From NCBI GenBank assembly GCA_965216755.1, contig CBDCGL010000011.1:4352001-4416000 (forward strand): 64,000 nucleotides of DNA. The letters run 5' to 3'. This DNA is from Alphaproteobacteria bacterium. GTDB taxonomy: Bacteria; Pseudomonadota; Alphaproteobacteria; UBA7887. Of the stretch, positions 10,834 through 49,005 are shown in pieces. The translations under genes were made by a program, and so were the position numbers. The notes below the pieces were generated by a model, which saw nothing but the letters and a program-made list of their open reading frames with translations, did no database searches and was not told the origin of the DNA. Every line of letters starts with the position of its first letter. The stretch's first letter is position 1.

Positions 10834-10960
10834 GGCGATTGATGTTGGTATCAGCTCGCCGCGCGAAAATCTCCCAAAATCCGCCTGTCCTCAACCAGTC
10901 ATTAACGATTGCCCACGTAATTTGCCAATCTGAGAAAAAGAACTGTTTGGGGGGCAATAT

Positions 10961-11689
10961 ATGTCCGTTTCCAGGCGGACCATGTTGGTCGGTGGATTGG
11001 GTATTGCCGCGGGTGCGGTCACTGGCGCGACGCCAATAGTTGCAGCGCCAAACAGTTTTGCGTTTCGTGCGACGGATCTGCTCTTCTTCTATGGTACAAT
11101 TGGCTTGATGCGACCGCGCAACGAAGGTCCGCCCGGTCCAGGTTGGGTGCGCAAATGGGCGGCACCGGCCGAGGTTGTGTTGCGTGGACGCGTCAAACCA
11201 GAGTTCGGCGCCACCATCGACATTATTCTGCATCGCCTTTCGGTTTTGACCGGGCAAGAGTTTAGGCGCGTGCGTGGTTTCGATCCGACGGCCAAACGAC
11301 AGCAGATCGTGGTTGATTTCTTGCCGCGCGACGAAATGGCCCGGCGCTATCCGGGACGTTGGCGGGTTTATGGATTTACGCGCACTTGGGGGCATCGTGG
11401 CAAAATTCATGCGGGCCGTATCGAAGTCGACGAGACCGCGCTCGATTGTTTGCATCACGAATTTATGCACGCCATTGGCTTCGATAATCACTGGCCGGGC
11501 GCGGTCGGCAATGTACAAGCCCATTCGGCATTGGCGCGGCGTGACACGGCCCACCGCGTAAATGGCTTTTCGCCCTGGGATGAACACGCGATCCGCGTGC
11601 ACTACGACAATCGGATATGGCCCGGGACGCGCCGAGACGACGCATTGTCGGTGGCTCACAATGTCATCGGCGAGTTTTCGGCCGCCTGA
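10961..11689 (+). CDS. Tat-exported DUF2927-like putative zinc metallopeptidase
   Basis: SRRTML Tat signal; VRKW motif; CLHHEFMHAIGFDNH HExxH motif. Confidence 0.75.
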   Translation: MSVSRRTMLVGGLGIAAGAVTGATPIVAAPNSFAFRATDLLFFYGTIGLMRPRNEGPPGPGWVRKWAAPAEVVLRGRVKPEFGATIDIILHRLSVLTGQEFRRVRGFDPTAKRQQIVVDFLPRDEMARRYPGRWRVYGFTRTWGHRGKIHAGRIEVDETALDCLHHEFMHAIGFDNHWPGAVGNVQAHSALARRDTAHRVNGFSPWDEHAIRVHYDNRIWPGTRRDDALSVAHNVIGEFSAA

Positions 11690-12088: not shown

Positions 12089-12247
12089 CGTGCGTCCGCT
12101 CCCTGTCTTTTGCCAGGGAGTCTGTTTTCTGACGCCATTGTGGTCATGATCCAAATGGACCATGCGCCGCCTGTTCCGCGCCATCCTGAATTTCTCTGCA
12201 ACTGGCGCTATATTTGCGGCGTGAAAACGCACCGCCCGGGGGGCGCT

Positions 12248-14572
12248 ATGGACCAGGCGATAGAGGCTGAAACAACTGGCGAAACGACCATCGACCCGGT
12301 TTGCGGGATGACAGTCACACCGGCGACGGCCCGCTTCACGCATGGTCACGAAGACCAGACGTACTATTTCTGCTGTGCACGCTGCCAGGAGCGCTTCGCC
12401 GGCGATCCGGCCCAATTTATGGCCGGCGGCGCGCCACCGGAACCTTTGCCGGGTGCTGAGTCGATCACCCATACCTGCCCCATGCACCCCGAAGTCGTGC
12501 GGCTCGGGCCCGGCGATTGCCCGCTGTGCGGCATGGCCTTGGAGCCGGCGGCGATATCCTTGGATGAGGGTGAGCCACCTGAATTGATCGACTTTCGCCG
12601 CCGATTTTGGATCGGTGCGGCATGCGCGCTGCCACTGATCGTGCTCGCTATGGTGCCGCACCTGACCGGCTTCGACTTTGGCTTGTCAGGCCAGTCTTCG
12701 GCTTGGCTGCAGTTCATATTGGCGACGCCGGTTGTGTTGTGGGCCGGTTGGCCCTTTTTTCAGCGTGGCTGGGCTTCGGTAAGAACGCGCCATCTCAACA
12801 TGTTCACGTTGATCGCTTTGGGTTCTGGTGTTGCCTATGTCTATAGCGTCCTTGCGACCTTGGCACCGGCCTGGTTCCCGGATGGGTTTCGACGCCCTGA
12901 TGGGGCCGTTGATGTCTATTTCGAGGCTGCCGCCGTCATCGTGCTTTTGGTATTGCTGGGTCAGATCTTGGAGCTCCGGGCCCGTGACCGCACCCGTGGT
13001 GCGGTGCGCGCGTTGCTCGATCTCAGCCCCAAGACCGCGCGGCGGGTCTCCGGCGACGGCGACGAGCAGGATGTTGCCCTTGATGACGTGGTGCCCGGTG
13101 ACGTTCTGCGCGTGCGGCCGGGCGAAAAAGTGCCGGTTGACGGGACGATAATCGAAGGCAAAAGCGCGGTTGACGAGTCGATGGTGACGGGCGAGCCGGT
13201 CGCCGTCGTGAAGTCCGTCGGCGATACTGTGATTGGTGCCACGGTCAACGGCACCGGAGGCTTCGTCATGCGCGCCGATCGGGTCGGTGCCGAGACCATG
13301 CTGGCAAATATCGTGCGCTTGGTCGCGGATGCACAGCGTAGTCGCGCCCCGATCCAGAGCGTCGCCGACTCGGTTGCCGGCGTTTTTGTTCCACTGGTTC
13401 TGGTCATCGCAATTGCCGCGTTCACGGTCTGGTCGATTTTTGGCCCTGAGCCGCGCCTGGGCTATGGCCTGGTCGCGGCTGTGTCGGTGTTGATCATCGC
13501 CTGTCCGTGTGCGCTGGGCTTGGCGACACCGATGTCGATCATGGTGGGTACTGGCCGGGGCGCCCAAGCCGGCGTGCTGATTCGCAACGCCGCGGCATTG
13601 GAGCGGCTCGAAAAAGTCGACACGTTGGTTGTCGATAAGACCGGGACCCTGACCGAGGGGCGGCCGTCCGTGACCGACATCATCTGTGCCGAGGGCACCG
13701 ACCCACAAGATGTGCTGATTTGGGCCGCTGCCATTGAGAGGTCCAGCGAACACCCGCTGGCTGCGGCCATCGTCGAAGCTGCGGCTGAAGCTGCAACCCG
13801 GGTCCCTTCGGTCAAATCGTTCGCGGCCATGGCGGGCTTGGGCGCCCGCGGTATCGTTGGCGGGAAAATCGTCGTCGTCGGCAATGACGGCATGATGCGC
13901 GCTGCGGGCGCTGATTTGAGCGCGTGGCAAGATCGCTCTCAATCGTTGCGCGCGACCGGTGCCACGGTGGTATACGTCGCGGTCGACGGTGCGGTTATGG
14001 GCATGCTCGTAATTTCGGATCGCATCAAGGACGGTGCTGCTGAGACTTTGGCGACCTTGCGCGCCAGCGGACTGTCCATCGTCATGCTCACCGGGGATCA
14101 TCGGGCCAGCGCCAAGGCGGTCGCCGCGCAGCTCGGCATCGAGGTCGTCCATGCCGAGATATTGCCCGAGGATAAGGGGGCGACCATCAAGGCGTTAAGA
14201 GGTGATGGTCGACGGGTCGCCATGGCGGGAGACGGTATAAACGACGCCCCGGGCTTGGCTGCCGCGGACGTTGGCATCGCCGTGGGCACCGGCACCGACA
14301 TTGCCATCGAGAGTGCGGATATGACGCTGATACATGGTGACTTGCGTGGCATTTTAAGGGCCCGATGGTTGAGCTTGGGCGTCATGCGCAACATTCGGCA
14401 GAATTTGTTTTTGGCGTTTGTCTACAATGGCCTGGCTGTGCCGGTGGCGGCCGGTGTGTTGTTTCCCTGGTTCGGTGTGACGCTGAGCCCGATGATCGCG
14501 GCCGCGGCCATGAGCCTGAGTTCGGTATCGGTTATCAGCAACGCGCTGAGACTGAGGTCGCTGTCGCTCTAA
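12248..14572 (+). CDS. copA: Cu(I)-translocating P1B-type ATPase with YHS and heavy-metal-binding domains
   Basis: DPVCGM/YFCCARC, TCPMHP..CPLCGM, CPC, DKTGT, SEHPL, GDGIND, YN and MSLSS signatures. Confidence 0.95.
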
Positions 14573-15460: not shown

Positions 15461-17224
15461 TCAGTCTAAGCCGGCCGCCCGCAGCAACCCGGCAATCCGG
15501 TCGCGCACGGCCGCATCGCTGAATGGCGCCGTGGCCATAAGATTCGCGACGGTCTGTTTCGGATAGCGGGCCCGATATCGGTCCATGGCACGCCGTGCGT
15601 CTTCGTCCCGACCCAATGCGCCGAGGGCGGCCGCATACCAGCGCAGATAGAGCTCCGGCGAGCTATCCATACGTTCCATGGCATCGACGGCAGCCTGATA
15701 GCGCTCAGCGATCACATGTGCGACCACAACAACGCCCCGCGCCCAAGGTGATAAGTTTGGGTTGCGGCGGGACGCTTCTTCCATCAGGTCGATGGCCGTA
15801 TCCGACGCGCCGTTGAAGCAATGTGCATAGGCCAGGAAGCCGTAAGCGTCGACATCATTCGGATTTAGACGGAGCCCGCGTTCAAAGGCACGTATGGCGT
15901 CCTGAAGGTGACCGGACCATTGATGGACCAGTCCGAGCGTCAGGTGATTGGTGTGGGACGCGGGGTTTATCTCCACGCCCCGTTGGGCGAGCGTTCGCGC
16001 CTGCGCCAACGTCGCTCTGGGATCGGAGGTCCACTGATTGTCGTATTCAATCAGATAGGTCCAAGCGAGGCTGGCATAGGCGCGCGCATAGCTCGGGTCC
16101 AACTCGATCGCCTGCTGGTAAAGTTCGCGCGCCTTTTGGTTGTCTTCGGGTGTGAACCGAAACCAGAATTCACGCCCCTGCAGCACCAAATCGTAGGCCT
16201 GCAGATTCTCGGGCCGATCTTCGCCACGGACCCGACGACGTTCGCTGGTTTCTAGCTGCTGCGGCAATGACGCCACGATTCGCGCGGTGACCTCATCTTG
16301 CACCGCAAACACATCTTTAAGATCGCGGTCGAACCGTTCCGCCCACAAATGATGACCGTTCGTGCCGTCGACCAATTGCGCCGTGATGCGCACCCGTTCG
16401 CCTGAACGGCGCACGCTGCCCTCCAGCACATAGCGGACTCCGAGCTCACGCGCGACCGTTTGGACCTTGACCGGGCGATTCTTATAGGTGAACACCGAAT
16501 TTCGCGCGGCGACCGCCAATTCCTGGAAGCGGGCGAGTTCGGTGATGATGTCCTCGGTGATTCCGTCGGCGAAGTAGTCCTGGTCGTCACCGCCGCCCAT
16601 ATTGTCGAACGGCAGAACGGCGATGCTCACGCGCGCCGGCGGGCGTGTGGAGACAGCGGTATCGGCCGCGCTCGATGATGGGTCCGAGGCCTCGGTGTGC
16701 ATATGGAATACGTGCACCGGGGCATCGATATTTTTGACTTCGTGGGTGCCGCGATCGTCGAAATCGTAGGATACGCGCTTGCGAACTTGTTCGAAAACGC
16801 TCGCCGAGACTGCCACGCCGCCGGGCGCGGCAAGAGCCTGCAAGCGCGCCGCGACGTTGATACCGTCGCCGAAGATCGTGCCATCTGGCTGAACCACCAC
16901 GTCGCCCAAATGGACACCAATGCGAAACCGCATGCGTCGTTCTTCGGGTAGTTCAGCGTTACGCGCCGCCAGGTCCTCTTGAAGGTCGGCCGCGCACCGG
17001 ACCGCGTCGACGACGCTGGGAAACTCGGCCAAGATTGCGTCGCCGGTCGCGTCGACCAGCCGCCCACCATGTGCGTCCGAGCGGCCACGAAACACGTCGC
17101 GGCAGGCGCGCAGCGCGGCGATGGTGGCCACCTCGTCGTCTCGCATGAGTCGCGAATATCCAACCACGTCGGCGCTCATGAGCGCCGCCAATTTGCGATG
17201 TGGTGCCGTGTCGTTCACAAGCAT
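15461..17224 (-). CDS. Cytoplasmic class III nucleotide cyclase - TolB-like - TPR protein
   Basis: LMSADVVGYSRL, TGDA, GDGINVAARLQ, SIAVLPFDNM, TPR repeats; no TM segment. Confidence 0.93.
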   Translation of the reverse strand: MLVNDTAPHRKLAALMSADVVGYSRLMRDDEVATIAALRACRDVFRGRSDAHGGRLVDATGDAILAEFPSVVDAVRCAADLQEDLAARNAELPEERRMRFRIGVHLGDVVVQPDGTIFGDGINVAARLQALAAPGGVAVSASVFEQVRKRVSYDFDDRGTHEVKNIDAPVHVFHMHTEASDPSSSAADTAVSTRPPARVSIAVLPFDNMGGGDDQDYFADGITEDIITELARFQELAVAARNSVFTYKNRPVKVQTVARELGVRYVLEGSVRRSGERVRITAQLVDGTNGHHLWAERFDRDLKDVFAVQDEVTARIVASLPQQLETSERRRVRGEDRPENLQAYDLVLQGREFWFRFTPEDNQKARELYQQAIELDPSYARAYASLAWTYLIEYDNQWTSDPRATLAQARTLAQRGVEINPASHTNHLTLGLVHQWSGHLQDAIRAFERGLRLNPNDVDAYGFLAYAHCFNGASDTAIDLMEEASRRNPNLSPWARGVVVVAHVIAERYQAAVDAMERMDSSPELYLRWYAAALGALGRDEDARRAMDRYRARYPKQTVANLMATAPFSDAAVRDRIAGLLRAAGLD

Positions 17225-17381
17225 CCCCTCAAGGCACCGGCGCGGGTCCGTGGTGCTGCTTGCCAAGGTCGTTCGATGCCGCACTGGTCGCGATATGGGC
17301 GCCCGGTTCGGTCGTTACAACGCGTGTCAAGTCATGGTGAAACGGCAGTCCTGGTTTTTTCGATGGTCCCACAGTGTCAAA

Positions 17382-18341
17382 CTACCGCTTTTCGGTGTCG
17401 CGATCCGCGCTCAACGCGGCGGCAACGGCGGTGCGACCGGGGATTGGGGCGACCGCGCCATAGCCGCAGGTCGACAACGCGGCCGCAACATTCGCGGTCG
17501 TCGCGGCCTCAAAGACCGGCGTTTTAGCGATCAATGCCGCCAGAAACGCACCAGCGAATGTGTCGCCCGCGCCCGTGGCGTCAACCGCGTTCGCTTTGTA
17601 TGGCGCAATGCGGCGCCGCGCCCGGCCCGTCGCGACCAAGGCGCCGTTCGCACCCATTTTCAGCGCGACCACGTCGCAACCTAGTCCCAAATAAAAATCG
17701 ACGATCGCATCCGGTTCTCTGAGCCCGGTTAGCAGCACGGCATCGTCCAAACTCGGCAGGGCAATGTCAGCTTGCGCGATGGCTCCATGAATGACCGCGC
17801 GTGCGCGGGCCAATGGCCACAACTGCGCTCTGAAGTTTGTGTCGTAGGACACGCGCACGCCATTGGCCTTGGCGATGTCGATGGCGCGAAAAGCGGCGTC
17901 ACAGGCGCCGTCGCTAATTGCCTGGCTGATTCCGGACATGTGGACGATCTGCGCCTGGGCGATCAATGTCTCGGGAATTTGCGCCGTGCCAAAGCGGCTG
18001 GCTGCGGAGCCGGCGCGGTAATAGGTAAATGCGTGGCCATCATCATGGTGGGTCACGAAATAAACGCCGGTTGGGGCGTCGGGGTCACGAAGGACGTGGC
18101 TGTGATCCACTCCTTCGCGCCGCCATAGTTCCACCAAGGCATCGCCGAAGACGTCGCGGCCAACCGCGGTGACATAGGCGACACGCGCGCCCTGGCGTGC
18201 GGCCGCGATGGCACAATTCGACGTGTCGCCGCCGTAACCCCAGGTGAATGCGCCGAGAACGCGGTCAGGCCCGGCCTGATTAAACTCGACCATGGGCTCG
18301 CCGAAGCAAACGATCTGAGCGACAGGCGGTGTGGTTGCCAC
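17382..18341 (-). CDS. kdgK: 2-keto-3-deoxygluconate kinase (PfkB family)
   Basis: GGDTSNCAIAAARQG, YYRAGSAAS, YDTNFR and DATGAGDTFAG; directly downstream of eda. Confidence 0.85.
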   Translation of the reverse strand: MATTPPVAQIVCFGEPMVEFNQAGPDRVLGAFTWGYGGDTSNCAIAAARQGARVAYVTAVGRDVFGDALVELWRREGVDHSHVLRDPDAPTGVYFVTHHDDGHAFTYYRAGSAASRFGTAQIPETLIAQAQIVHMSGISQAISDGACDAAFRAIDIAKANGVRVSYDTNFRAQLWPLARARAVIHGAIAQADIALPSLDDAVLLTGLREPDAIVDFYLGLGCDVVALKMGANGALVATGRARRRIAPYKANAVDATGAGDTFAGAFLAALIAKTPVFEAATTANVAAALSTCGYGAVAPIPGRTAVAAALSADRDTEKR

Positions 18342-18345
18342 GGCC

Positions 18346-18981
18346 CTAGGCTTGTGCCGCCGCGGCACGATAGCCGCGGGCATTGGCGACGAATGCATCG
18401 CGCGCCCCGTCGCGGATCAATTCTTCATTGATCAAGTTGCCGCCAACGCCGACGAGGGCCGCGCCGGCCTGCAGATAGGCGTCAATGTCATCGCGGCCAA
18501 TACCACCTGTCGGCACCAACGGCACCGACGGAAACACCGCTTTGAGCGCGTGGATATGCGCCGGGCCGCCGGCGCTGGACGCGGGAAAAATCTTCACCGC
18601 ATCGGCGCCCGCGGTGGCGGCATTGTGAACTTCGGTCGGTGTATAGGCTCCCAACAAGCACGGGATCCGCGCCTCATGACAGAGTCCGACAAGGCTCGGC
18701 GCGGTGACCGGAGATACAATAAACCGCGCATTGGCCTGCAGACAGCGTTCAGCGTCGGCCTCGGACATCACCGAGCCAGCCCCGATAATGATACCCTGGT
18801 CATCGCGATATGAGTCGATGAGCGCGATGGCATCAGGGATCGTCAGCGTGATTTCGGCAGTATTGAATCCGGCCAGGTGTAGCCAGTCGACGGCGGTGCG
18901 CGCGCTTGCCGCTGTGGTTGTGCGAATGACCGGGATCACGCGCTGGCTGCCGAAAATGTGTAATTGCCTGTGGCCGATCAT
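18346..18981 (-). CDS. eda: KDPG/KHG aldolase
   Basis: PVIR, EITLT, GAGSV, FIVSP, TPTE, VKIFPA and PTGGI motifs. Confidence 0.92.
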   Translation of the reverse strand: MIGHRQLHIFGSQRVIPVIRTTTAASARTAVDWLHLAGFNTAEITLTIPDAIALIDSYRDDQGIIIGAGSVMSEADAERCLQANARFIVSPVTAPSLVGLCHEARIPCLLGAYTPTEVHNAATAGADAVKIFPASSAGGPAHIHALKAVFPSVPLVPTGGIGRDDIDAYLQAGAALVGVGGNLINEELIRDGARDAFVANARGYRAAAAQA

Positions 18982-19059
18982 GACAATCGCAAAGATAACC
19001 GAAAATGCCCCCATTGGTTAGGCGTTGGTTGGTGCTGCGGCGGCCCTTGGACGGGTTGT

Positions 19060-19163: not shown

Positions 19164-21845
19164 ATGGTGCCTGCAGCCCACGCAACGACGTTGACCGCCA
19201 ATGCGCCGCAGCCAACGACCGCGCCGGCCATGGCGTGCTGGCTCGGCACGATGGCTTATGTCGCCGTCCTTGTCGCGCTGCTGATGGTGCTGCCAGCCTC
19301 GGTGCTCAATGCGGAAAGTGCGCAATTCCTGCTCATTATCGGTTGGATTGGCACCTGGCGTTATAGCTGGGCAACAATTCACGCGGGACGGGCGTTGATC
19401 TATGCGTTCATCCGGTTTCCGCGTTTGCGTGCCGCGGCCGATCGGTTGGGCCCGCGTGGTTTGCCGTCCCATCTTTTCGTGCTGATCACCTCTTATCGTA
19501 TTGATGCCGAGACCAACGCTGCCGTCTACGCGAGTTTGATCGACGATGTTTCTGAATGCGCTATTCGCACGATAATCGTTGCTGCTGTAAGCGATGAAGC
19601 CGACGAACGTCAGTTGCAAGCTCTGTTTTGCCGTCTTGCACCACCGCCGGGGGTTGAACTGGTCATAATGCGCCAAGATGGGACCGGTAAACGGACCGCG
19701 ATGAGCGAGGGTTTGCGTGCCATTTCGCGGCGCATCCCGCCCGCTGACAGTCTGGTCTTGTTCATGGACGGGGACGTGCGCTTGCCGCGGGGCACGCTGA
19801 GACGGACAATGCCGTTCTTCGCTTTGATGCCCCGCCTCGGTGGTGTGACGACAGACAATCGCGGCATCACGACGGGAAGCAATTGGGTCAAGGAATGGTA
19901 TGACATGCGCTTCGCGCAGCGCCATGTTCTGATGTGCTCGTTGAGCTTGTCGTGGAGGGTGCTGGTCTTGACCGGGCGTTTCAGCATGTTTCGCGCCGAC
20001 ATCGCCACCGACGCCGGATTCATCAAGGCGGTCGAGGAAGACCACATCGCCCATTGGCGCTTTGGCCATCTAAAGTTTCTGACCGGCGACGACAAATCGA
20101 CCTGGTATTGGGTGCTGAAGAACCGGTGGGACATGTTGTATCTGCCGGACGTTCAAGTTCACAGCTTCGAAGTTCTGCCATCGCCATCGCTGATCAAAAG
20201 TTCAATTCAGCTGATGGTGCGATGGTTCGGCAACATGATGCGCAATAACGGCCGGGCAATCGCCTTGGGGCCACGCGTCACGGGCGGATTCATTTGGTGG
20301 TCGTTGGTTGATCAACGCTTGTCGATGTGGACAAGCTTAACCGGGCCGGTGGCAACGGCATTTGCGGCAATGGTTGTCAGCCCGGTGTTGATTATCGTGT
20401 ATCTGACCTGGGTGATGATCACACGCTTTTTGCAAGCCGCGATCGCCGGCGGTGTGCGGCGACGTTTCAGTCCATATATGCCGTTTCTTCTGTACTACAC
20501 GCAAGTCGTTGGATCGTTTGTAAAGATCTATGTGAGCTTTCGGCTCAACCGGCAGCGTTGGACACGTCAAGGTATTGGGGGCAACAAACGTTTGACCCTG
20601 AAGCAACGCCTTCAGAATGGGGTCTCGCTTTATATTCATAGCTTATCGTTTGTGACCTTTTTGTTCCTGATGGCACTGGCATCAGGCGCGCTTTTTTTAC
20701 CAAGCGTCGGCGCGATCGATAGTGTTTTCGCCGGCCAAGATGGAACCGTGGCTGCGACCGATGATGCGCGATGGTTGCAGGCGGCCATCGATGCGGCGCC
20801 GCGCGGGGCCGTTGTGCGCATACCTGCCGGTGATTATCATTTGGGCGGACCTATCGTGATCGCGCGTGATGACATAACGCTTCAGGGAGCGGGCAGCAAA
20901 CAAACCCGACTTGTTGCGAGTTTTGCCGGCACCGACGATGCCTTAATTACGATCGCCGGGGAGCTACCGCGCGACGCGGCTGCGGGGCAATGTGCCGAGC
21001 TGTCTGTCGCGATCACAGCCGATCAGACGATGGTTCGGCTGAACCGAGGTTTTGGTTTGCAGCGTGGCGATTTCGTCTCGCTGCGTGCTGCCAACGATCC
21101 GTCATTTCTGCGCGAGTTGGGAGCCGAAGTTTGGCAGCGGCGATATCCACACCTTCGGCAAACACTCGCCCAAGTCAGTCACGCGGAGGGTGCGTCCGCG
21201 CGGCTCGTGGATCCGGTCGGGTTGGCACTGCCCGCGGGTGGTGAAGTATGCCGGCTAGATGTGGCGGAGAATGTGAGCTTACGCGGCTTCACATTGCGCT
21301 ATGACCTTGGTGTCGCCAGCGACGCGGCAGATTACAGCAACAGTCGCCCCGACCATCGGCTCGACGGTGTCGCGGTGCGCGGCGCCGCGGATGTGCGCCT
21401 GTCCGACATTGTCGTTGTGAATGCCGGCCGACATCCGATCCACTTGGACACTGTCGTCCGCTTGGTGGCCCAAGACCTCGCGGCGCACGGTGCGTACAAC
21501 AAAGGTAAAGGCGGTAACGGCTACGTCCGCTTGGCTCGGACCGTACGCTCGCAGTTCGATGGGCTGACCTTGCGCGGCTTGCGCCACCTCACCATTCAAT
21601 GGTCGAGCCACGGCAATCGCATCGTTGATTTGGATAGCGACAGCGATGTCAATTTCCATGGCGGTTACACACATGAGAATGTGGTTCACGCAACCCGTTT
21701 GTCACCGCGGGCCAATCATCCATGGGGCGCGGTGACGCGGACGCCGGCGGATGCCGTGTGGGCGCCGCCCGATGGACCGGGCAACAAAGTATTCGTCAAT
21801 GGCCGCGCAGTCACCGCGCCACCGCGCAAGCGCGAGGGCAATTGA
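19164..21845 (+). CDS. alg8: Alg8-like mannuronan synthase (GT2) fused to a C-terminal right-handed beta-helix domain
   Basis: GTWRY, QDGTGKR, MDGD, LTGRFSMFRA, FLTGDDKSTW, LMVRWFGNMMR and DQRLSMWT match Alg8. After the last TM comes DDARWLQAAID...IPAGDY...ITLQGAG, a pectate_lyase_3-type start. Confidence 0.88.
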   Translation: MVPAAHATTLTANAPQPTTAPAMACWLGTMAYVAVLVALLMVLPASVLNAESAQFLLIIGWIGTWRYSWATIHAGRALIYAFIRFPRLRAAADRLGPRGLPSHLFVLITSYRIDAETNAAVYASLIDDVSECAIRTIIVAAVSDEADERQLQALFCRLAPPPGVELVIMRQDGTGKRTAMSEGLRAISRRIPPADSLVLFMDGDVRLPRGTLRRTMPFFALMPRLGGVTTDNRGITTGSNWVKEWYDMRFAQRHVLMCSLSLSWRVLVLTGRFSMFRADIATDAGFIKAVEEDHIAHWRFGHLKFLTGDDKSTWYWVLKNRWDMLYLPDVQVHSFEVLPSPSLIKSSIQLMVRWFGNMMRNNGRAIALGPRVTGGFIWWSLVDQRLSMWTSLTGPVATAFAAMVVSPVLIIVYLTWVMITRFLQAAIAGGVRRRFSPYMPFLLYYTQVVGSFVKIYVSFRLNRQRWTRQGIGGNKRLTLKQRLQNGVSLYIHSLSFVTFLFLMALASGALFLPSVGAIDSVFAGQDGTVAATDDARWLQAAIDAAPRGAVVRIPAGDYHLGGPIVIARDDITLQGAGSKQTRLVASFAGTDDALITIAGELPRDAAAGQCAELSVAITADQTMVRLNRGFGLQRGDFVSLRAANDPSFLRELGAEVWQRRYPHLRQTLAQVSHAEGASARLVDPVGLALPAGGEVCRLDVAENVSLRGFTLRYDLGVASDAADYSNSRPDHRLDGVAVRGAADVRLSDIVVVNAGRHPIHLDTVVRLVAQDLAAHGAYNKGKGGNGYVRLARTVRSQFDGLTLRGLRHLTIQWSSHGNRIVDLDSDSDVNFHGGYTHENVVHATRLSPRANHPWGAVTRTPADAVWAPPDGPGNKVFVNGRAVTAPPRKREGN

Positions 21846-21852
21846 TCGCGTT

Positions 21853-23478
21853 ATGCTTGACGAACAAGACAAACTCACCCCGGTCGCGGTTTCTGGCCCG
21901 GTCACCCGCGAAAGTCGCAGCGGTCGACGCCATATCCGTGCGCGTATGCCCGTCGATTTGGAACTCGACGGGGCCCGCTATCGCGCCAACGACATCTCCA
22001 TCGGTGGCTTTGGTATCGAAGGCATGACCACGGTTCGCCAAGTCGGCGAGTCCCTCACTGTGTCAGTGTTACTGCCGTTCCGTGACTACGACTTCAAAAT
22101 GACGCTGACCTGCGAGGTTGCCCATATAGATCGGCAGAAGGTTTATATCGGTTTTCGATTTGTCGACATTACGGAGACGCAAGTCGCGCTGTTGGGCTAT
22201 TTAATCCAGAGCTACCTGTCGGGCGAGCTGGTCACGGTCGAGAACTTGTTGAGCGTGCCGCAAATTTCCGGTGGCGCGCGTGCGGTTGGCAAGGTGGCGG
22301 GTGTCGACAAGCCGACCGCCCGGCAATTGGTGGGCCAAGGTGTTCGCTACGTGGTGCTTGGCGTTGCCGGATTGGTCGTGATGGGGGTGCTGGGACTATC
22401 TTTCTACGATCGATTTTTCACTGTTGATGCTGAGCTGGCTGCGTTGACCGCGCCGCGTATTGCGTTGCGGGCGCCGGCCGACGGTCGATTGGTTGTGGAT
22501 CCGTCACTGGTCGGACGAAATGTCGAAATCGGCACGCGATTGTTCGCCATTCGCGACCCAGATGTGGCGAGTCTGATTGCAGAAGCCGAGGCAGTGATCA
22601 CCAAGCAGCAAGCCAAACTGGTGGGCTTGCAGGTCCAACTACGCGAACGCCGAAACTTCTTTAAAGCGTACAGCAAACTGGCGGCGGCCCAATTGGCTGA
22701 GGCCGAGGCGACATTGCACCAGGCGCGGATTGGTTTTGAAACGGCTGAAAGGGAGTATTTTCGCACGCAAGAACTGCGCGAGGCCGGGCATGCGACAGTG
22801 CGGTCACTCGACGATTCCCTTAATCGGTACGCGCAAGCCAAGGCCGCCATGGAGCAGGCCGCCGCCGCGGTTGATCGCGCGCGCACAAACGAGGGCCTGG
22901 CGGACCAAGGCCAATACTATACAAACAAGCGTGGCGACGGCGGTGAGATTGGTGAGATCCGGCGGGAGATCCAAGCCGTCGAAGCTGAAATTGTGGCACA
23001 ACGCGAGCGTGTTGCGGCGCTGCAGGCGCGCGAGTCCGATCAAGTGGTGGTGAGCCCCTGTAACTGTTTGGTACAGCATGTGCGCAGCGTCGATGGCGAT
23101 TGGGTCGCACAAGGCGAAGATGTCACGATCTTGGCGGAGGCAGGCGATTCGCAAGTCCTCGTCAGCGCGCTGGTCGATATTGTTGTCGTCGATCGGCTGC
23201 GACTTTATCAACGCGCCCACATCGCCTTTGCGGATCGTGACCAGCCCATGCGTGGACGGATTGTTGCGATTAATCGCACAGCCTTGCCGGAAGACCGCTT
23301 GGGATTGCCTCCGGGTGCCGATGGGCGTGCGGGCGTCGCCACGATCTTGGTGATGCCGGACCAAGCAATTGACGGCTTGCCCATTGGTTTGCCCGCGCAG
23401 GTGACGTTTCCATTGTCTTGGCGGCAGGCAACGTTTCGCTGGTTAGGCGGCCTACCCGCAACCACTGACGACGGCTAG
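21853..23478 (+). CDS. alg44: Alg44-like co-polymerase: PilZ + TM + HlyD/membrane-fusion domain
   Basis: RRHIR (RxxxR) and DISIGG (DxSxxG) c-di-GMP motifs, YLSGELV, one TM, long coiled coil, SPCNC. Confidence 0.87.
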   Translation: MLDEQDKLTPVAVSGPVTRESRSGRRHIRARMPVDLELDGARYRANDISIGGFGIEGMTTVRQVGESLTVSVLLPFRDYDFKMTLTCEVAHIDRQKVYIGFRFVDITETQVALLGYLIQSYLSGELVTVENLLSVPQISGGARAVGKVAGVDKPTARQLVGQGVRYVVLGVAGLVVMGVLGLSFYDRFFTVDAELAALTAPRIALRAPADGRLVVDPSLVGRNVEIGTRLFAIRDPDVASLIAEAEAVITKQQAKLVGLQVQLRERRNFFKAYSKLAAAQLAEAEATLHQARIGFETAEREYFRTQELREAGHATVRSLDDSLNRYAQAKAAMEQAAAAVDRARTNEGLADQGQYYTNKRGDGGEIGEIRREIQAVEAEIVAQRERVAALQARESDQVVVSPCNCLVQHVRSVDGDWVAQGEDVTILAEAGDSQVLVSALVDIVVVDRLRLYQRAHIAFADRDQPMRGRIVAINRTALPEDRLGLPPGADGRAGVATILVMPDQAIDGLPIGLPAQVTFPLSWRQATFRWLGGLPATTDDG

Positions 23479-25576: not shown

Positions 25577-25981
25577 TATTTGTTACCTCTTCCCAAGTTC
25601 TATATGTGCCGTACCGATTGTCGGGTGTTCAATTGCACCCTTGGAACTCGTGAGACGTTGCCTGCAATGATCGTCCCCCCGCGCACGTACATTATCGACA
25701 ACGCATGGCCGGTCAAGCCTGCCACGGTCCACTTATTACCATTTCATGTAGGAGATGCAAGCAAAGCACATGGAAACTGGGCCGGATTGTTGTTCTTTTC
25801 GATTTCGTAACGAATTCACAGGATGTTTTTGCCCTGGCGCCGACTGATTGTACGGCTCACGAAACAGCGAAAGCCTCAATTGCCGTGGCACCAAGCCGTG
25901 GCGCGTTGCGTTCAATCTTCACAAAGGACGTCAGAGGCGCAAGCCAGGCTTGCGCAGTTGGACCACAATGCGTGGGTATTG

Positions 25982-26542
25982 CTAGAACCTGTAACCATAA
26001 CGGACGCCGAGCGTATCGAGGCCCTCGTTGGGGCTTGCAAGGTAGGCGTTGGAAATGTGGTCGAACATAATCGAGAACCTGTGTTGATCGCCGGCCTGAA
26101 AACCAATCTCTATAGGAATGCGAAAGAGCAGGTGAGATCCCAGCTCCTTTTTGTCGGGATCGCGGGTTTCCGTTTCGCCATCGTGTACCGTGATACCAGC
26201 CCCAAACGCGAGAAAGAGCTGCGCAGGAAGGTCGACCTCGATAACAAATCCGCCATAGAGTTTGCTGGTATCGTCGCCATTGTTGATCGACACACCAAGA
26301 TTTGGCCGCAAGACGGCATAAGGCAGAAGCGCGCGGTTCCACCCAAAAACCACTTCGCCGTTGAAATCGAATCCACTCTCGCGCCGAAAACCGCTCCAAA
26401 GTCCGTCGACATCATGCGCCAAAACGCCGAACTTGGCTTCGTAAAACCAGTGGCCAGCGCCGCGCTCGGACTCAAAGGGTGCTGCGACGCACGGGAACGA
26501 AGTGAAACATATCGCGGCGGCGATCATCACCGATCGTAACAT
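25982..26542 (-). CDS. Acyloxyacyl hydrolase / PagL-like lipid A deacylase outer-membrane protein
   Basis: Signal peptide, GVLAHD, LGSHLLFR, HISNA catalytic motif, C-terminal YRF. Confidence 0.88.
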   Translation of the reverse strand: MLRSVMIAAAICFTSFPCVAAPFESERGAGHWFYEAKFGVLAHDVDGLWSGFRRESGFDFNGEVVFGWNRALLPYAVLRPNLGVSINNGDDTSKLYGGFVIEVDLPAQLFLAFGAGITVHDGETETRDPDKKELGSHLLFRIPIEIGFQAGDQHRFSIMFDHISNAYLASPNEGLDTLGVRYGYRF

Positions 26543-27335: not shown

Positions 27336-28562
27336 TCACGACGAATGGCAGCCAGGCACACGCCGATCCGGCGGTGTCGGGGGCGAGCTGCGGTCGACCG
27401 TCGTCCAATGCTCCACGTAACCAAGTTGAATCAATGTGGTGCGGGCGCGGACCCACCCTTCGAGGCGTGTCGTGGCCAGTTGCGCCAGTTCCGCACGGGA
27501 GCTGGGGCGCATTTGGCCGGGCGACTGCTGCGCTTGGTTCTTGATCAGTGATTGGACTGCTTCAACGGCGCTTTGAGCCGCATCGGCCAGTGCCGCTTCT
27601 CGGGCGAGATAGTGCTGCTCAAATTCCTGCCGTGCCCAAGGTGCGCACCGCGTGACGTCGCCAACGGGCGGGTGCCGCCAGCAACTGTGCAACCCACACG
27701 AGGCCAACTGGCACCGCACCTGATACCACGACAAGGCCTGGCGCAATATTTGGTTAATCAGGTCGACATGCATCTCGGCCATTTCGGCATGATCGGCACA
27801 CGATTCTCGGAAATCGGCAAGTGTGCGCAGAAGCGACAAGACCAGCGTCAAGCGACCCGCAATATCTGCGTGGCGGTCCTGATCATCGACCGTTCGTGAC
27901 GATCGGCGCAGTCTCTGCCATTCACATTGAAATAGGTGCTGCACAAATGATTGCGGGAGTGCTGCGATAGAGCCAAGCAACGAACCACGAAACTGGATTG
28001 TGCGTTCAATGGCGTGCGGGTTGCTGATGAGATCGATCGGTCCGAATAAGTCAAAGATCGAACGGTGCCAGGCCAGCACAACAGGAAACGTGCTTGTTGT
28101 CCCCTCGTTGGCCAAAACCGTATCGCATGTCGGCGGTTCATCAAGCGGTGCTTGTGGCACTATGCCAACCACATGGTTGTCGTCGCGGTGCGCAATGTGT
28201 GCTTGGATGACTGCCGCGCCGGTTCGTTGCCGGCAATGCACCAAGCCGGCGATATAGTCGGGCGCCAAGTGCTTGTCGAGTCCGCCCAGAATGACAAAGT
28301 CGCCGCGCGCTCGCGCCATCATTTCATTGATCCGGGCGATTCGCGCAAAATCGTCGTCACCCACTGGCCCATCCAACAGCCGCCATTGCGGCGAGCCACC
28401 GGATGTCTCGCGGATAGCCGTCCATAGCGCCGTGTCTATCGCGGACCCGCTGGACACGATGACCTCGGTGGGCGGCAAGGTTTGCGCTAACAGGGCGTGT
28501 ACGGCATCCGACGCCACCGAGCCGTCGCCACGATCGCAAGGCAAAAGATACGAGATTTTCAT
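27336..28562 (-). CDS. Degenerate GT2-family glycosyltransferase-like protein
   Basis: KISYLLP..AVHALLAQT...EVIV, ARARGDFVIL; the DxD position reads GGLD. Confidence 0.6.
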   Translation of the reverse strand: MKISYLLPCDRGDGSVASDAVHALLAQTLPPTEVIVSSGSAIDTALWTAIRETSGGSPQWRLLDGPVGDDDFARIARINEMMARARGDFVILGGLDKHLAPDYIAGLVHCRQRTGAAVIQAHIAHRDDNHVVGIVPQAPLDEPPTCDTVLANEGTTSTFPVVLAWHRSIFDLFGPIDLISNPHAIERTIQFRGSLLGSIAALPQSFVQHLFQCEWQRLRRSSRTVDDQDRHADIAGRLTLVLSLLRTLADFRESCADHAEMAEMHVDLINQILRQALSWYQVRCQLASCGLHSCWRHPPVGDVTRCAPWARQEFEQHYLAREAALADAAQSAVEAVQSLIKNQAQQSPGQMRPSSRAELAQLATTRLEGWVRARTTLIQLGYVEHWTTVDRSSPPTPPDRRVPGCHSS

Positions 28563-28599
28563 TGCGGTCGTGCCAGATCCGTCAGCGAGAACGGTCGGA

Positions 28600-29406
28600 T
28601 CACGGTGTGACGCCAATCGGGACGTCGTGGCGTCGCAGCGCCCAGCGCCAAACGCCGCTACCGGATTCGGCAACCATGGCGGGACTTTGCAGGCCATGGA
28701 GTGCGCGTGCATTATGAATCAGCAAGGCATCGCCTGGGGCCATGACGGCCATGCCGGCACGTCCGGCGGCGACGATGTGGTGGTCGAGAAAATGGCCAAA
28801 CTCGGATATCAGCCGACGTACCAACGGGTCGCCGCCATCGACGATGTATGATGGGTCCCATGTGATCGTCCACCCGCCCGGGCCACCGCGAAAGACAGGT
28901 GTCAAATGACCCCCGCCATCCAAGCGTGCGAACCGAAGGGGTAAATTCGTCAGCTGCGCCCAAAGTCGCGGGACCGACATTTCGGCAGTCGCGGCAATGC
29001 ATCCCGCGTCGGCGAACACAATCCCGTGTCGCAAGATGGTGCCGACCGGCATCCCGATCAGGACCAGGTCGGGCGTTGCCGAATCATCGGCGCCGGCGGC
29101 GTGCAACGGCTCGTCGACCAAGGTTCGTCCCAGCGCGGGCGTGGTCACGAACGTCGATGCGATGTCTGTAGGTTCGGGGGGTGGCAAAACCGGCCAACGC
29201 CTCGGACGCCCGGCGGCGACGGTCTCCGAAAGCCTGATATCGCCCATGGCGGCGGCGATCGCGCGCCAGCATTCCTGATCGGCAAGCCCGAAGCCAAGCC
29301 CCACGACATGGGTCACCAAGGCGTCATCCACGGCTGTGGCCAAGCGCGCGGCAACTGATGGCGGTTTGGCGTCAGATAGATCCAGCCTTCGATACAACGC
29401 GTTCAT
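28600..29406 (-). CDS. Degenerate TauD/TfdA-like 2OG-Fe(II) dioxygenase
   Basis: PLHAAG at the HxD position, PDLVL, PGDALLIHNARALHG. Confidence 0.6.
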   Translation of the reverse strand: MNALYRRLDLSDAKPPSVAARLATAVDDALVTHVVGLGFGLADQECWRAIAAAMGDIRLSETVAAGRPRRWPVLPPPEPTDIASTFVTTPALGRTLVDEPLHAAGADDSATPDLVLIGMPVGTILRHGIVFADAGCIAATAEMSVPRLWAQLTNLPLRFARLDGGGHLTPVFRGGPGGWTITWDPSYIVDGGDPLVRRLISEFGHFLDHHIVAAGRAGMAVMAPGDALLIHNARALHGLQSPAMVAESGSGVWRWALRRHDVPIGVTP

Positions 29407-29613
29407 ACCCAACGCTTGCCCCAGTCTTGGCTGTCGCGCGCACGCATCATGCCCATCCCTGCCGGGGCATAAATTTGTCGTGACGGCCCTGTGGGCTTCG
29501 CGGTGTGTTGGGAGAATCAGCACGCATGAGTGATCGTTTTGCACAGGCGACGGAACGCCGCACAATACGGACGCAAACCTTAAGAAAGTGTGCCGCTTCA
29601 GCCTGTGTGGCCG

Positions 29614-48428: not shown

Positions 48429-49005
48429 CTAAGCGACATGCCGCATCATCAACAGGGCGTCGCCGGTCGCCCGTATGAGTGCGTGCGGGGCAATCGCACG
48501 CCGGTCAATCATGATAGCCGTGGCGTTCATAAAGGCGTTTCGCGCCTTGGTTTTGTTCGAACACGATCAGGCTGAGTTTGTCGAGGTTCATTGTGCGGGC
48601 ACGTTCGACGGCGCGTTCCAAAAAGACCGTGCCAATGCCACGGCCGCGGACGGAGTCCAATGTCGCCACACCCGATATGTAAAGGCTGCCCGGCACTTCA
48701 AGTTCAGCATAGGGTCGCAAGATGGGATCGGGGTTTTCGTCCTGGTCGTCGTCATGCGATGCCATCGCGAAACTGTGTAGCATGCCGACAACGCGTTCAT
48801 GGTGCGTTGCGACCAAACAGTTTTCAAACGAAAAATCGACTCCGTCTCGCGCGTATCGGCGTTCGCCGACATCCAATAGAGATTCACCGGGTCTTGCCAG
48901 CAAGGTCCATATGTAGTCGGCGACACCGTCGGATGAGATCTGAAACAAGGCGGCGATGGCGCGGCTGTCCGCGCGTGTCGCAGGTCGATAATCGAATTCG
49001 GTCAT
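48429..49005 (-). pseudogene. GNAT acetyltransferase with 3' frameshift
   Basis: RGRGIG and AKRLYERHGY, then a stop at 48505. Another frame continues IDRRAIAPHALIRATGDALLMMRHVA* and ends 3 bp before the next gene. Confidence 0.7.

Follow-up and report, generated by a model that had tools for sequence, protein, structure and literature searches.

In Pseudomonas and Azotobacter the Alg8 synthase is a protein of 493 aa which terminates at its last transmembrane (TM) helix. 'Atypical' alginate operons outside Pseudomonas lack algKE and/or algGXLIJF according to main-text passages of Bundalovic-Torma et al. 2020 (PMC7112194), and an alg8-alg44-lyase cluster is described for Halomonas in passages of PMC11890756. 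Those passages of the two papers contain no mention of an Alg8-beta-helix fusion. As far as such passages of PMC7112194 describe them, the known fusions BcsA-BcsB, BcsZ-BcsC and the two-domain PgaB also combine neighbouring exopolysaccharide functions in one polypeptide, but none couples a catalytic synthase to a modifying or depolymerising periplasmic beta-helix. The mannuronan C5-epimerases and epimerase/lyases AlgG (periplasmic) and AlgE1-7 (secreted, RTX), which act on the polymer after synthesis, are right-handed beta-helices.

The locus analysed here is located in a stretch of 64 kb (the window) and is best explained as a synthase module of two genes, gated by c-di-GMP and belonging to a non-canonical Alg8/Alg44 branch. 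In contrast to Pseudomonas/Azotobacter Alg8, its synthase carries an additional C-terminal beta-helix of roughly 380 aa. The features are listed in the table.

Features of the locus and its neighbours (positions within the window)
Feature	Position	Strand	Basis
PfkB sugar kinase, nearest 2-dehydro-3-deoxygluconokinase models	17382..18398	-	Pfam PfkB, 1e-55
KDPG/KHG aldolase (eda-like), divergent from synthase	18346..19014	-	Pfam Aldolase, 4.6e-37
Fused gene, Alg8-type GT2 synthase + C-terminal beta-helix	19164..21845	+	single 893-aa ORF
Cytoplasmic GT2 catalytic domain, aa 104-356	19473..20231	+	Pfam PF13641 (Glyco_tranf_2_3), E 2.3e-29
Last transmembrane helix, aa 486-512	20619..20699	+	hydropathy peak 485-523
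Right-handed parallel beta-helix (modelled), aa about 531-883	20754..21812	+	AF2, Foldseek, family conservation
Alg44-like gene, 541 aa	21853..23478	+	Pfam PilZ 6.4e-9, HlyD_3 9.2e-7
PilZ domain of Alg44-like gene	21916-22206	+	Pfam, 6.4e-9
Single TM of Alg44-like protein, aa 166-184	22348-22404	+	prediction, 541-aa numbering
HlyD_3 in predicted periplasmic HlyD/MFP-like part	23044-23295	+	Pfam, 9.2e-7

The fused synthase and its Alg44-like neighbour

The ORF list and translation revealed no internal stop in the fused gene, and the protein collection contains an identical 893-aa gene call. Its N-terminal half is a complete Alg8-type processive GT2. The motifs DGD202, TGRFS270, GDDKS308 and RWFGN353 are present and invariant in 30/30 aligned fused homologues, and like the GT2 motifs the TM layout is that of Pseudomonas/Azotobacter Alg8. 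Alg8 proteins from Metapseudomonas and Azotobacter loci share 43-44% identity with the synthase. A structure model of the whole protein (pLDDT 87.6) found its best fold matches in the hyaluronan synthases 8smp/7sp8 (E about 5e-13).

The fusion is genuine and conserved. Among the 119 non-self relatives listed, 29 were full-length fusions (856-924 aa, at least 92% query coverage), from sources including Sorangium, Ramlibacter, Rhodospirillaceae and Alphaproteobacteria MAGs, and an all-against-all search added 18 fused-like cluster representatives. In an alignment of 30 rows (the window protein and the 29 full-length fused homologues) residue conservation continues across the synthase/domain junction, and D734, G755, R756, N779, K780, G781, H808, S814 and N839 of the C-terminal half are invariant in 30/30. 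An artefact of assembly or annotation, with two genes merged by a sequencing error, is extremely improbable in view of these independent fusions from several sources and lineages, the further representatives and a junction spanned by conserved residues; no support for it was found.

The beta-helix is appended exactly at the end point of canonical Alg8, since the last TM helix is the one at which the 493-aa protein terminates. A K/R-rich linker (aa 459-485) leads into this helix. In the 30 homologues the linker contains on average 5.6 K+R versus 1.5 D+E, whereas the segment past the helix contains 6.6 D+E versus 3.1 K+R. Because of this positive-inside charge bias the domain is predicted to be periplasmic; the last TM helix would carry the chain end, and hence the beta-helix, into the periplasm. 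Signal-peptide-like N-termini of stand-alone relatives of the domain, together with its RTX and CBM_2 relatives, support this siting. An earlier note on this DNA, which had described a one-ORF fusion with Alg8 motifs in the N-terminal half and a domain beyond the final TM, was confirmed in these points.

The second gene encodes a PilZ/TM/membrane-fusion protein of the Alg44 type and, as in Pseudomonas/Azotobacter, directly follows the synthase gene. Its likely start is the ATG at 21853, 7 nt past the TGA of the fused gene (21843-21845), and an exact 541-aa protein with this start is present in the protein collection. The start at 21751 given in the earlier note was set aside; it yields a 575-aa translation overlapping the fused gene, in which Pfam places PilZ at residues 56-152 and HlyD_3 at residues 432-515. 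The claim of a PilZ-HlyD gene with intact c-di-GMP motifs held: R25xxxR29 and D47xS49xxG52 (541-aa numbering) are complete, and among solved proteins the PilZ domain of Alg44 (4rt0/4rt1, E 1.9e-5) comes closest. Activation by c-di-GMP is presumably shared with the Pseudomonas/Azotobacter system.

Fold and family of the C-terminal domain

Modelling of aa 510-893 by AlphaFold2 with the 30-row alignment resulted in a structure with pLDDT 93.0 and pTM 0.90, whose strands are all beta. A Foldseek search against the PDB yielded 43 matches with E<=1e-3, and those listed were all parallel beta-helix enzymes or adhesins. From this confident model and these matches the C-terminal half is predicted to be a beta-helix. 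The closest solved folds are the phage tailspike/capsule lyases 4ru4 (6e-10) and 7w1c (TMq 0.52); AlgE4 (2pyg, E 1.1e-5, TMq 0.46) and 8ja4 (4e-5) were also matched, and the matches in BFVD were tailspikes and depolymerases. All these fold matches are generic, with TMq <=0.52 across the PDB.

The earlier note had likened the start of the domain to pectate_lyase_3. The Pfam match to PF12708 covers aa 531-595 only and its 25.2 bits are under the 27-bit cut-off. Sequence matches to solved proteins or Pfam models are confined to the N-terminal cap (aa about 520-590). Unlike a member of PL6 or another known lyase family, the domain matches no Pfam-modelled lyase family; its identity to the tailspike/capsule lyases is 9-15%, and tblastn found no phage sequence homologue. 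Membership in the AlgG/AlgE family was rejected as well: homology is confined to the N-cap, hhalign against an AlgG-like profile gave a probability of 1.4%, the Beta_helix/NosD Pfam matches obtained with AlgG-like proteins are missing, and the window protein has no DPHD/E motif (1/30 fusions has one, in the pre-domain linker).

By sequence, the domain belongs to a large, unnamed and uncharacterised beta-helix family with 648 cluster representatives at E<=1e-3. These are mostly RTX-secreted, CBM2-linked or signal-peptide proteins; 47/61 longer relatives contain RTX secretion repeats and 14/61 a CBM_2. Language-model neighbours bear the names GH55 or pectate-lyase superfamily. Across 134 family members a stack of residues is conserved, (R756/H757), N779/K780, R807/H808, D828/N830/H832 and N839, which differs from the conserved set of AlgG/AlgE. 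K780 is found in 133/134, R807 and H808 in 134/134 and H832 in 132/134, and one acidic residue only is conserved family-wide. According to DSSP of the whole-protein model, K780, R807, H808 and H832 probably occupy equivalent turns of successive coils. PL6 enzymes likewise have a conserved Lys and Arg on adjacent coils. In 4/80 fetched loci the domain is encoded on its own beside alg8, and a further such gene lies by the alg8 cluster of a Salipiger plasmid (5 cases in all).

Synthase clade and surroundings

A FastTree analysis of 121 sequences placed the synthase in an Alg8 clade (B) apart from Pseudomonas/Azotobacter Alg8, with a split support of 100. The Halomonas-type Alg8/Alg44 loci are clade-mates, but their Alg8 has no C-terminal extension or one of about 130 aa (the 'ext' relatives, with such a tail in place of the full domain), and unlike the window they have PL5/PL14 lyases as genes of their own, together with a Sel1/AlgK-like protein and a dehydrogenase. 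In the 24 fetched clade-B loci, which are non-independent because 19/24 stem from one Halomonadaceae/Caenispirillum lineage, algG, algX/J, algI and algE are all absent (AlgG homologue 0/24, versus 44/54 in clade A) and PL5 and/or PL14 lyases are nearly always present; 22/24 are without the full beta-helix domain and with a PL5 or PL14 lyase. In three annotated loci this lyase gene is located immediately 3' of alg44.

Where a dehydrogenase is present in clade B, it is UDP-glucose-dehydrogenase (Ugd)-like and not AlgD-type as in the canonical system, and the sampled loci contain no GDP-mannose pyrophosphorylase. Since such dehydrogenases occur in a separate clade, the sugar may differ and the polymer may be other than alginate, which makes the 'alginate-type' label of the earlier note doubtful. 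Its statement that the canonical accessory genes are not nearby was correct for the 64 kb: Pfam and tblastn with 9 query families detected no homologue of algD/K/E/G/X/L/I/A in contrast to the Pseudomonas/Azotobacter operon, and algJ/algF were likewise not found. The window also contains no PL5/PL14 lyase, whereas the domain is present, and no genes for outer-membrane export, sugar-nucleotide synthesis or diguanylate cyclases were seen. The alphaproteobacterial host assumed in the earlier note is plausible: for a housekeeping protein no relative exceeded 65% identity, and the named hits came from MAGs of Proteobacteria, Alphaproteobacteria and Geminicoccaceae and from one Gammaproteobacteria MAG.

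Possible roles of the tethered domain

We consider it fairly probable that the tethered beta-helix is a periplasmic enzyme which processes the polymer of its own synthase. Binding of c-di-GMP to the PilZ domain would license polymerisation; the synthase would polymerise an acidic beta-1,4-linked polyuronate and thread it through the inner membrane, and the beta-helix at the periplasmic channel exit would act on the emerging chain. The periplasmic or oligomeric product suggested in the earlier note is speculative. This reading is suggested by the nearest solved folds, tailspike polysaccharide lyases and AlgE epimerases, by the family-wide conservation of K780, R807, H808 and H832, and by the separate domain genes beside alg8, which link the domain to the polymer system. 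Passages of PMC4436075 cite an interaction of Alg8 with AlgG in P. aeruginosa as a precedent; the fusion would render such a contact covalent. The missing export, sugar-nucleotide and diguanylate cyclase genes speak against a processing module, and the generic fold matches, with the N-cap alone matching, against a catalytic assignment from sequence. An Alg8-type synthase with its own beta-helix and a c-di-GMP sensor suggests that the machinery for acidic exopolysaccharides has an unstudied branch.

As to the chemistry, a beta-eliminative lyase is our tentative choice, favoured over an epimerase but unproven. Unlike tailspike or secreted lyases, the domain would be tethered to the membrane with the synthase, and could trim or clear the polymer in the role of the separate PL5/PL14 genes of related loci without the full domain. 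This is indicated by the complementarity of domain and lyases in clade B, the fused side of which consists of one locus, the window itself. Caenispirillum, which combines two lyases (PL5 and PL14) with a secreted copy of the domain, is more readily explained by an epimerase or some other role.

A polymer-level C5-epimerase acting on the nascent polyuronate, analogous to AlgG/AlgE and possibly with a side lyase activity, seems rather unlikely. The fold matches include AlgE4, AlgE6 and an alginate epimerase/lyase, which also appear among weak N-cap profile matches (E 0.005-0.013). AlgE enzymes consist of an A-module and an R-module, and the main family layout of beta-helix plus RTX resembles this. 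The epimerase slot of clade B is empty, as none of the 24 loci has an AlgG homologue. Against this stand the family comparisons with AlgG-like proteins given above and the Rhodobacterales loci, where a secreted copy of the domain accompanies an AlgG-like protein.

A glycoside hydrolase or other non-lyase depolymerase, or a non-polyuronate polymer made by a synthase with different sugar specificity, is improbable. Fold and sequence searches also matched beta-helix hydrolases, namely GH110, the GH87 alpha-1,3-glucanase 7c7d (E 0.0016) and iota-carrageenase, and the GH55 names, the cellulose-binding module CBM_2 and the conserved acids D734 (fused set) and D828 would also suit a hydrolase. The conserved polar residues are mainly basic, however, a pattern more in keeping with an anionic substrate than with a hydrolase of the two-carboxylate type. 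A uronate-precursor gene was not found in the window, but relatives of the synthase adjoin nucleotide-sugar 6-dehydrogenases and uronate lyases.

Quite improbable is a mainly structural domain, which would stand in for the AlgG/AlgK/AlgX scaffold as a guide in the periplasm and have no chemistry of its own. AlgG retains a scaffold role without catalysis. It is described as a component of the periplasmic scaffold in passages of PMC4436075, homologues of AlgK, AlgE, AlgG and AlgX are absent from the window, and in the 'ext' forms the synthase dispenses with most of the domain. Conservation of the charged and polar stack in 134 members with four architectures, secreted stand-alone forms included, argues for catalysis over docking.

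If the domain is a lyase, the products of the adjoining kdgK-like and eda genes could consume the unsaturated uronates released. A functional tie between the eda-like aldolase (TIGR01182, 156.5 bits, cut-off 156.05) and the synthase is possible; this support is weakened because both enzymes serve many pathways and the kinase, with 206.7 bits for its best NCBIfam model (KDG/KDGal kinase), is below the curated cut-off of 400 bits. A kdgK-like kinase and eda represent the final two steps of uronate catabolism.

The synthase fusion and its Alg44-like partner

The ORF scan returned gene 1 as one frame encoding 893 aa with zero internal stops, and the same product is present in the public protein collection; an assembly artefact as the origin of the fusion is excluded. 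Residues 104-356 matched Glyco_tranf_2_3 (PF13641, E 2.3e-29, Pfam), and the motifs DGD202, TGRFS270, GDDKS308 and RWFGN353 were present and invariant across 30 aligned fused proteins. Using tblastn against the fetched loci, aa 28-488 were 43-44% identical to the Alg8 proteins of Azotobacter and of Metapseudomonas resinovorans, whose locus is a textbook algD-8-44-K-E-G-X-L-I operon according to Pfam. The alignment extends through the last transmembrane helix (TM) with the same TM layout. These data bear out the Alg8 motifs that the earlier note had read in the N-terminal part, and gene 1 was shown to encode a complete synthase of the GT2 type, with motifs of the DxD, TED-like and (Q/R)xxRW-like kinds. 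An AlphaFold2 model of the whole protein (pLDDT 87.6, pTM 0.59) had the hyaluronan synthases as closest fold matches, followed by cellulose and chitin synthases; neither sequence nor fold search found a solved Alg8 structure in the PDB.

Alg8 and Alg44 are a textbook protein pair, and the order alg8 then alg44 was seen in 62 of the 80 related loci listed. The second gene is real, but the start at 21751 assumed in the earlier note overlaps gene 1; an ATG located 7 nt past the TGA of gene 1 is preferred, and the resulting 541-aa product is an exact entry in the public protein collection. Both genes have a GC content of 0.59-0.61, like the flanking DNA. The N-terminus of gene 2 is a PilZ domain (PF07238, 6.4e-9, Pfam) with intact R25xxxR29 and D47xS49xxG52 motifs, and its best PDB matches are the Alg44 PilZ structures 4rt0, 4rt1 and 4xrn. 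One TM is predicted at 166-184, and the membrane-fusion part that follows it, predicted to be periplasmic, matched HlyD_3 (Pfam) as well as several MFP models of NCBIfam, the latter all below cut-off. The Alg44-like character of this gene and its intact c-di-GMP motifs were thus correctly recognized. From the motifs alone, gene 2 is predicted to bind c-di-GMP, which may be needed for polymerisation. A sequence-collection search with the 541-aa protein returned itself and one weak match, which is no gauge of rarity; coiled-coil words probably swamped the candidates behind this meagre result.

A canonical Alg8 of 493 aa stops just past the helix equivalent to aa 486-512 of the fusion. The fusion runs on at this point, so the domain is simply appended and nothing is inserted. 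In the linker preceding this helix (aa 459-485) the 30 fusions contain on average 5.6 Lys and Arg versus 1.5 Asp and Glu, and in the 33 residues past the last TM 6.6 Asp and Glu versus 3.1 Lys and Arg. The helix at 438-458 has a mean hydropathy of 0.73, too polar for a membrane span, and is flanked by positive residues on both sides. According to the positive-inside rule this charge bias places the domain, located past the final TM as the earlier note stated, in the periplasm, which is a prediction from sequence.

Fold and family of the beta-helix domain

The AlphaFold2 model of aa 510-893 (pLDDT 93.0, pTM 0.90) consists nearly entirely of beta strands. Foldseek against the PDB gave 43 matches at E<=1e-3 with identities of 7-15%, headed by the tailspikes of Pseudomonas phages LKA1 and phi297 (6e-10). 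The Klebsiella K1 capsule lyase (TMq 0.52) and further capsule depolymerases were also matched, with the AlgE4 A-module (1.1e-5, TMq 0.46), AlgE6, an alginate epimerase/lyase, GH110 and iota-carrageenase at lower rank. Tailspikes and depolymerases were likewise the matches in a viral structure library, and tblastn detected no phage homologue of the domain. The model and its matches uphold the assignment of the C-terminal part as a beta-helix, although the fold matches are generic.

The resemblance of the domain start to Pectate_lyase_3 holds for the N-terminal cap but not for family membership: PF12708 (Pect-lyase_RHGA_epim, formerly Pectate_lyase_3) stayed at 25.2 bits, short of its cut-off of 27, and covered model positions 14-80 of 213 only. 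The precomputed annotation of the protein collection assigns PF12708 to the window protein. Sequence methods matched only the first 60-70 residues of the domain. A direct search of solved structures paired the domain start with a GH87 glucanase, and a profile search found a phage pectin-lyase-like protein (7chu among the matches), AlgE4/AlgE6 and pectinesterases (E 5e-4 to 0.5), all at profile positions about 481-614. This stretch is the N-terminal cap common to many beta-helix proteins, and because nothing else was matched, no functional family could be assigned from the sequence and profile searches of solved structures or from NCBIfam. Scanning gene 1 against all of Pfam-A (E<=0.1) yielded just PF13641, PF12708 and PF00535 and no Pfam-modelled lyase family. 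Among roughly 40 PDB matches listed to rank 50, no chain was described as PL6 or PL31. Besides PL1, PL3, PL6 and PL9, the known beta-helix lyases include PL31, PL41 and PL44, which PMC11890756 names as newer alginate lyase families. Neighbours in a language-model atlas were the generic "pectate lyase superfamily / GH55 / DUF4955" and serve as leads only.

Membership of the domain in AlgG or AlgE was considered and rejected; what it shares with these epimerases is the right-handed parallel beta-helix and, in the case of AlgE4/AlgE6, the N-terminal cap. A profile of 21 domain sequences aligned by hhalign with 11 AlgG-like proteins from the fetched loci gave a probability of 1.4%. The AlgG-like proteins match Beta_helix (PF13229) and NosD (PF05048) strongly, whereas Pfam detected neither in gene 1. 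Canonical AlgG ORFs carry the catalytic motif DPHD. The window protein has no DPH[DE], and a single one of the 30 fusions has it, within the linker that precedes the domain.

Searched with the domain alone, a set of 1.84 billion cluster representatives contained 648 matches at E<=1e-3, of which 343 reached <=1e-10 and 90 reached <=1e-30. Among the best 150 of the 648, 133 contained a near-complete domain: 18 are Alg8 fusions, 24 are proteins of <470 aa (many with a signal-peptide-like N-terminus, two evident fragments of fusions), 65 are longer proteins with an N-terminal copy of the domain and 26 show other layouts. In 61 longer members scanned with Pfam we found RTX repeats (47) and CBM_2 (14); three were truncated fusions and seven showed no further domain. 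The RTX, CBM_2 and signal-peptide layouts indicate that the family is overwhelmingly extracytoplasmic. Polar residues conserved among 134 members are R807, H808 and N818 (all 134), K780 (133), H832 and N839 (132), D828 and N830 (131), Y787 (130) and N779 (129); R756 and H757 are conserved in fusions only. The spacing of 757, 780, 807/808 and 828-832 fits the coil repeat in the DSSP string of the model, and we infer that the conserved residues would stack along one groove.

A separate domain gene lies within a few kb of alg8 in four of the 80 loci listed, namely in Caenispirillum salinarum, Yoonia maritima and two Rhodobacterales MAGs. The protein from Caenispirillum salinarum is 1060 aa long and combines the domain with CBM_2 modules (three matched stretches) and with RTX repeats. 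Its gene is divergent from a ugd-alg8-alg44-PL14-PL5-Sel1 cluster and adjoins genes for an ABC transporter and a HlyD protein, which make up a type I secretion set. In Yoonia maritima and one MAG, the two loci scanned with Pfam, the domain is RTX-linked and its gene is located upstream of a regulator-algD-alg8-alg44-GMP-AlgG-like-MBOAT-AlgX operon. This arrangement recurs on a Salipiger plasmid, where the domain protein is annotated "hypothetical". On Thermus plasmids a stand-alone copy occurs in unrelated surroundings, which shows that the family also exists outside Alg8 systems. Taken together, the domain represents a large unnamed beta-helix family of hundreds of sequence clusters, mostly secreted and repeatedly tied to alg8-type loci.

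Alg8 clades and their accessory genes

A genome scan with the fused alignment, using patterns in the Alg8 half, listed 80 Alg8 loci, all of them unfused; the genome of the window was not among them. A FastTree analysis of 121 Alg8 parts, a quick method giving an unrooted tree, separated two groups with a support of 100. Clade A comprises 56 sequences (all canonical forms) from Pseudomonas, Azotobacter, Marinobacter, Rhodobacterales, Rhizobium and Microvirga, without extension except for two long ORFs. Clade B, with 65 sequences, takes in all 30 fusions together with 24 "ext" forms (600-673 aa; Halomonadaceae, Caenispirillum, Geminicoccaceae and other sources) and 11 plain forms, of which some are possibly truncated at contig ends. 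The window synthase therefore falls outside the clade of the canonical Pseudomonas and Azotobacter Alg8. The fusion label requires five changes on the tree, only two of them enforced by well-supported branches; given the quick method and the unrooted tree, we do not claim an ancestral fusion.

The "ext" proteins (loci L001-L014, L016-L018, L024 and L030) have a periplasmic tail of roughly 110-180 aa past the last TM, whose start aligns loosely with a beta-helix N-cap. The family HMM gave four weak matches (11-12.5 bits) on 21 long (>=590 aa) Alg8 ORFs, a hint that the tail might be what is left of the full domain.

Nine accessory families were surveyed in 78 loci, 54 of clade A and 24 of clade B, after removal of L047 and L070 as loci without a clean Alg8 ORF.

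Accessory families detected in Alg8 loci of the two clades
Family	Clade A	Clade B
AlgG	44/54	0/24
Sugar-nucleotide dehydrogenase	44/54	18/24
AlgX/J	32/54	0/24
AlgI	28/54	0/24
AlgK-like (Sel1)	27/54	18/24
GDP-mannose pyrophosphorylase	26/54	0/24
PL5 lyase	24/54	21/24
AlgE porin	12/54	0/24
PL14 lyase	0/54	19/24

None of the nine was found in the 64-kb window, in contrast to the canonical operon algD-8-44-K-E-G-X-L-I-J-F-A, and the control locus L056 showed a full operon; the absence of alg accessory genes near the pair, remarked on from the sequence, is thereby substantiated. All 18 clade B dehydrogenases are like the Halomonas type. That type reaches 475-506 bits on TuaD, a UDP-glucose 6-dehydrogenase model that it covers in full, compared with 227-262 bits for the two AlgD-type proteins scanned; the clade A dehydrogenases (46/46) are closer to AlgD-type queries. 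Together with the lack of a GDP-mannose pyrophosphorylase in all 24 clade B loci, this casts indirect doubt on GDP-mannuronate as the substrate and poly-beta-1,4-mannuronate as the product of the window synthase. Since 19 of the 24 clade B loci belong to one Halomonadaceae/Caenispirillum group, these counts represent few independent observations. No full fusion is among the 24.

In nine clade A loci (L041, L045, L046, L055, L065, L066 and L068 from Microvirga and Rhizobium, L035 and L039) an AlgG-like beta-helix forms the C-terminus of an ORF of roughly 1230-1280 aa, with DPHD near residue 975-1030 in six of them. This suggests AlgG fused to an upstream periplasmic component, perhaps AlgK-like, but could be an artefact of choosing the longest ORF in GC-rich DNA.

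Possible role of the fusion and its surroundings

In the mechanism we propose, binding of c-di-GMP to the PilZ domain of gene 2 would switch on synthesis of an acidic polymer, and the nascent chain would exit into the periplasm beside the tethered beta-helix, which would act on it. We favor a lyase function for the tethered domain on four grounds: lyases are its closest structures, basic residues prevail among its conserved ones, kdgK-like and eda genes lie alongside, and a lyase gene is present in nearly all clade-mates that lack the domain whereas the window has none. In three annotated clade-mate loci a dedicated lyase gene is located just past alg44. The adjacent genes are divergently upstream of gene 1: the eda-type aldolase scored just above the cut-off of TIGR01182, and the best model of the PfkB kinase was KDG/KDGal kinase with 206.7 bits, below the cut-off of 400. 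KDG kinase and eda aldolase catalyze the final two steps of uronate catabolism and also serve other pathways.

An epimerase is a serious rival to the lyase: the module logic would be like that of AlgE, the AlgG slot is empty in clade B, and Caenispirillum has two lyases in addition to the domain. Alternatively, the domain may be a hydrolase, the synthase may make a non-uronate polymer, or the domain may be purely structural.

A wider and rather improbable reading is that the Alg8 clade of the fusion is the missing synthase of a non-alginate polyuronate, for which beta-1,4-glucuronan with UDP-glucuronate as precursor would be the simplest candidate, and that the domain represents a new lyase or epimerase family acting on polyuronates, placed at the synthase mouth in fusions and extracellular in RTX and CBM2 forms. 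Hints of this are the Ugd-like instead of AlgD-like dehydrogenases of clade B loci and their lack of GDP-mannose pyrophosphorylase, AlgG and acetylation genes. Further hints are the adjacent PL14 lyases, a family that includes glucuronan lyases (PMC11890756), and the cellulose-type CBM_2 on secreted copies of the domain. Full-text searches on glucuronan brought up no paper that ties a bacterial glucuronan synthase to this gene family, and no named synthase.

Most work on synthase-dependent exopolysaccharide systems concerns Pseudomonas, in which separate proteins carry out polymerisation, modification and degradation and their contacts are hard to map. A conserved fusion of a synthase with a periplasmic polymer-active enzyme tells which activity sits at the channel exit, and together with gene 2 provides a simple system of two proteins in which the coupling of synthesis and processing can be studied structurally and biochemically. 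The domain family is also a candidate source of new polyuronate-active enzymes. Many annotations as "Alg8 / mannuronan synthase" (Halomonas, Rhodospirillales, Sorangium, Ramlibacter) may hide a non-alginate product, as the gene differences between the clades suggest, and this bears on the reading of biofilm and marine carbon-cycle genes. Searches of the running text of freely available papers brought up no description of an Alg8-beta-helix fusion. PMC7112194 describes "atypical" alginate operons without algKE or algGXLIJF, and PMC11890756 a Halomonas genome with alg8 and alg44 beside a lyase.

Farther upstream of the pair lies a gene for an adenylate/guanylate cyclase-TPR protein, and downstream one for a DsbA-like protein. 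The whole window contains no Rfam element and hence no riboswitch upstream; no promoter-like sites were found, and terminator-like sites did not exceed shuffled expectation.

Positions of features in the window and in the Caenispirillum salinarum locus L002
Sequence	Position	Strand	Feature
Window	5835-6584	-	Crp-family cNMP-binding regulator
Window	10661-11659	-	ORF, no Pfam match
Window	12110-14572	+	Heavy-metal P-type ATPase with YHS and HMBD
Window	15461-17284	-	Adenylate/guanylate cyclase paralogue
Window	17382-18398	-	PfkB kinase
Window	18346-19014	-	eda-type aldolase
Window	19164-21845	+	Gene 1 (fusion)
Window	21853 (ATG)	+	Gene 2 (Alg44-like)
Window	25823-26539	+	ORF, no Pfam match
Window	27336-28712	-	ORF, no Pfam match
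Window	28600-29565	-	ORF, no Pfam match
Window	33611-34786	-	Two-domain dCTP-deaminase-like protein
Window	49002-51239	-	Adenylate/guanylate cyclase paralogue
Window	55981-57972	+	Adenylate/guanylate cyclase paralogue
Window	57972-59879	+	Adenylate/guanylate cyclase paralogue
Window	59879-61783	+	Adenylate/guanylate cyclase paralogue
Window	61878-62441	-	Small separate YHS-domain protein
L002	3136-6223	-	ABC transporter and HlyD protein
L002	6259-9441	-	1060-aa domain protein

Four of the five cyclase paralogues are fused to TPR repeats, three of those in tandem; the fifth is joined to SAM and AAA_16 domains. With the Crp-family regulator, cyclic-nucleotide signalling is heavily represented in the window, where neither a GGDEF nor an EAL gene was seen. 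The four ORFs without a Pfam match would encode 238-458 aa, and NCBIfam gave no match for the three at 25823, 27336 and 28600. The best matches of the dCTP-deaminase-like protein were 57-65% identical, with none >65% among the 120 best, most of which are MAG proteins, and the host seems to be without a close sequenced relative in the searched collection. The P-type ATPase and YHS genes represent ordinary copper or metal homeostasis.
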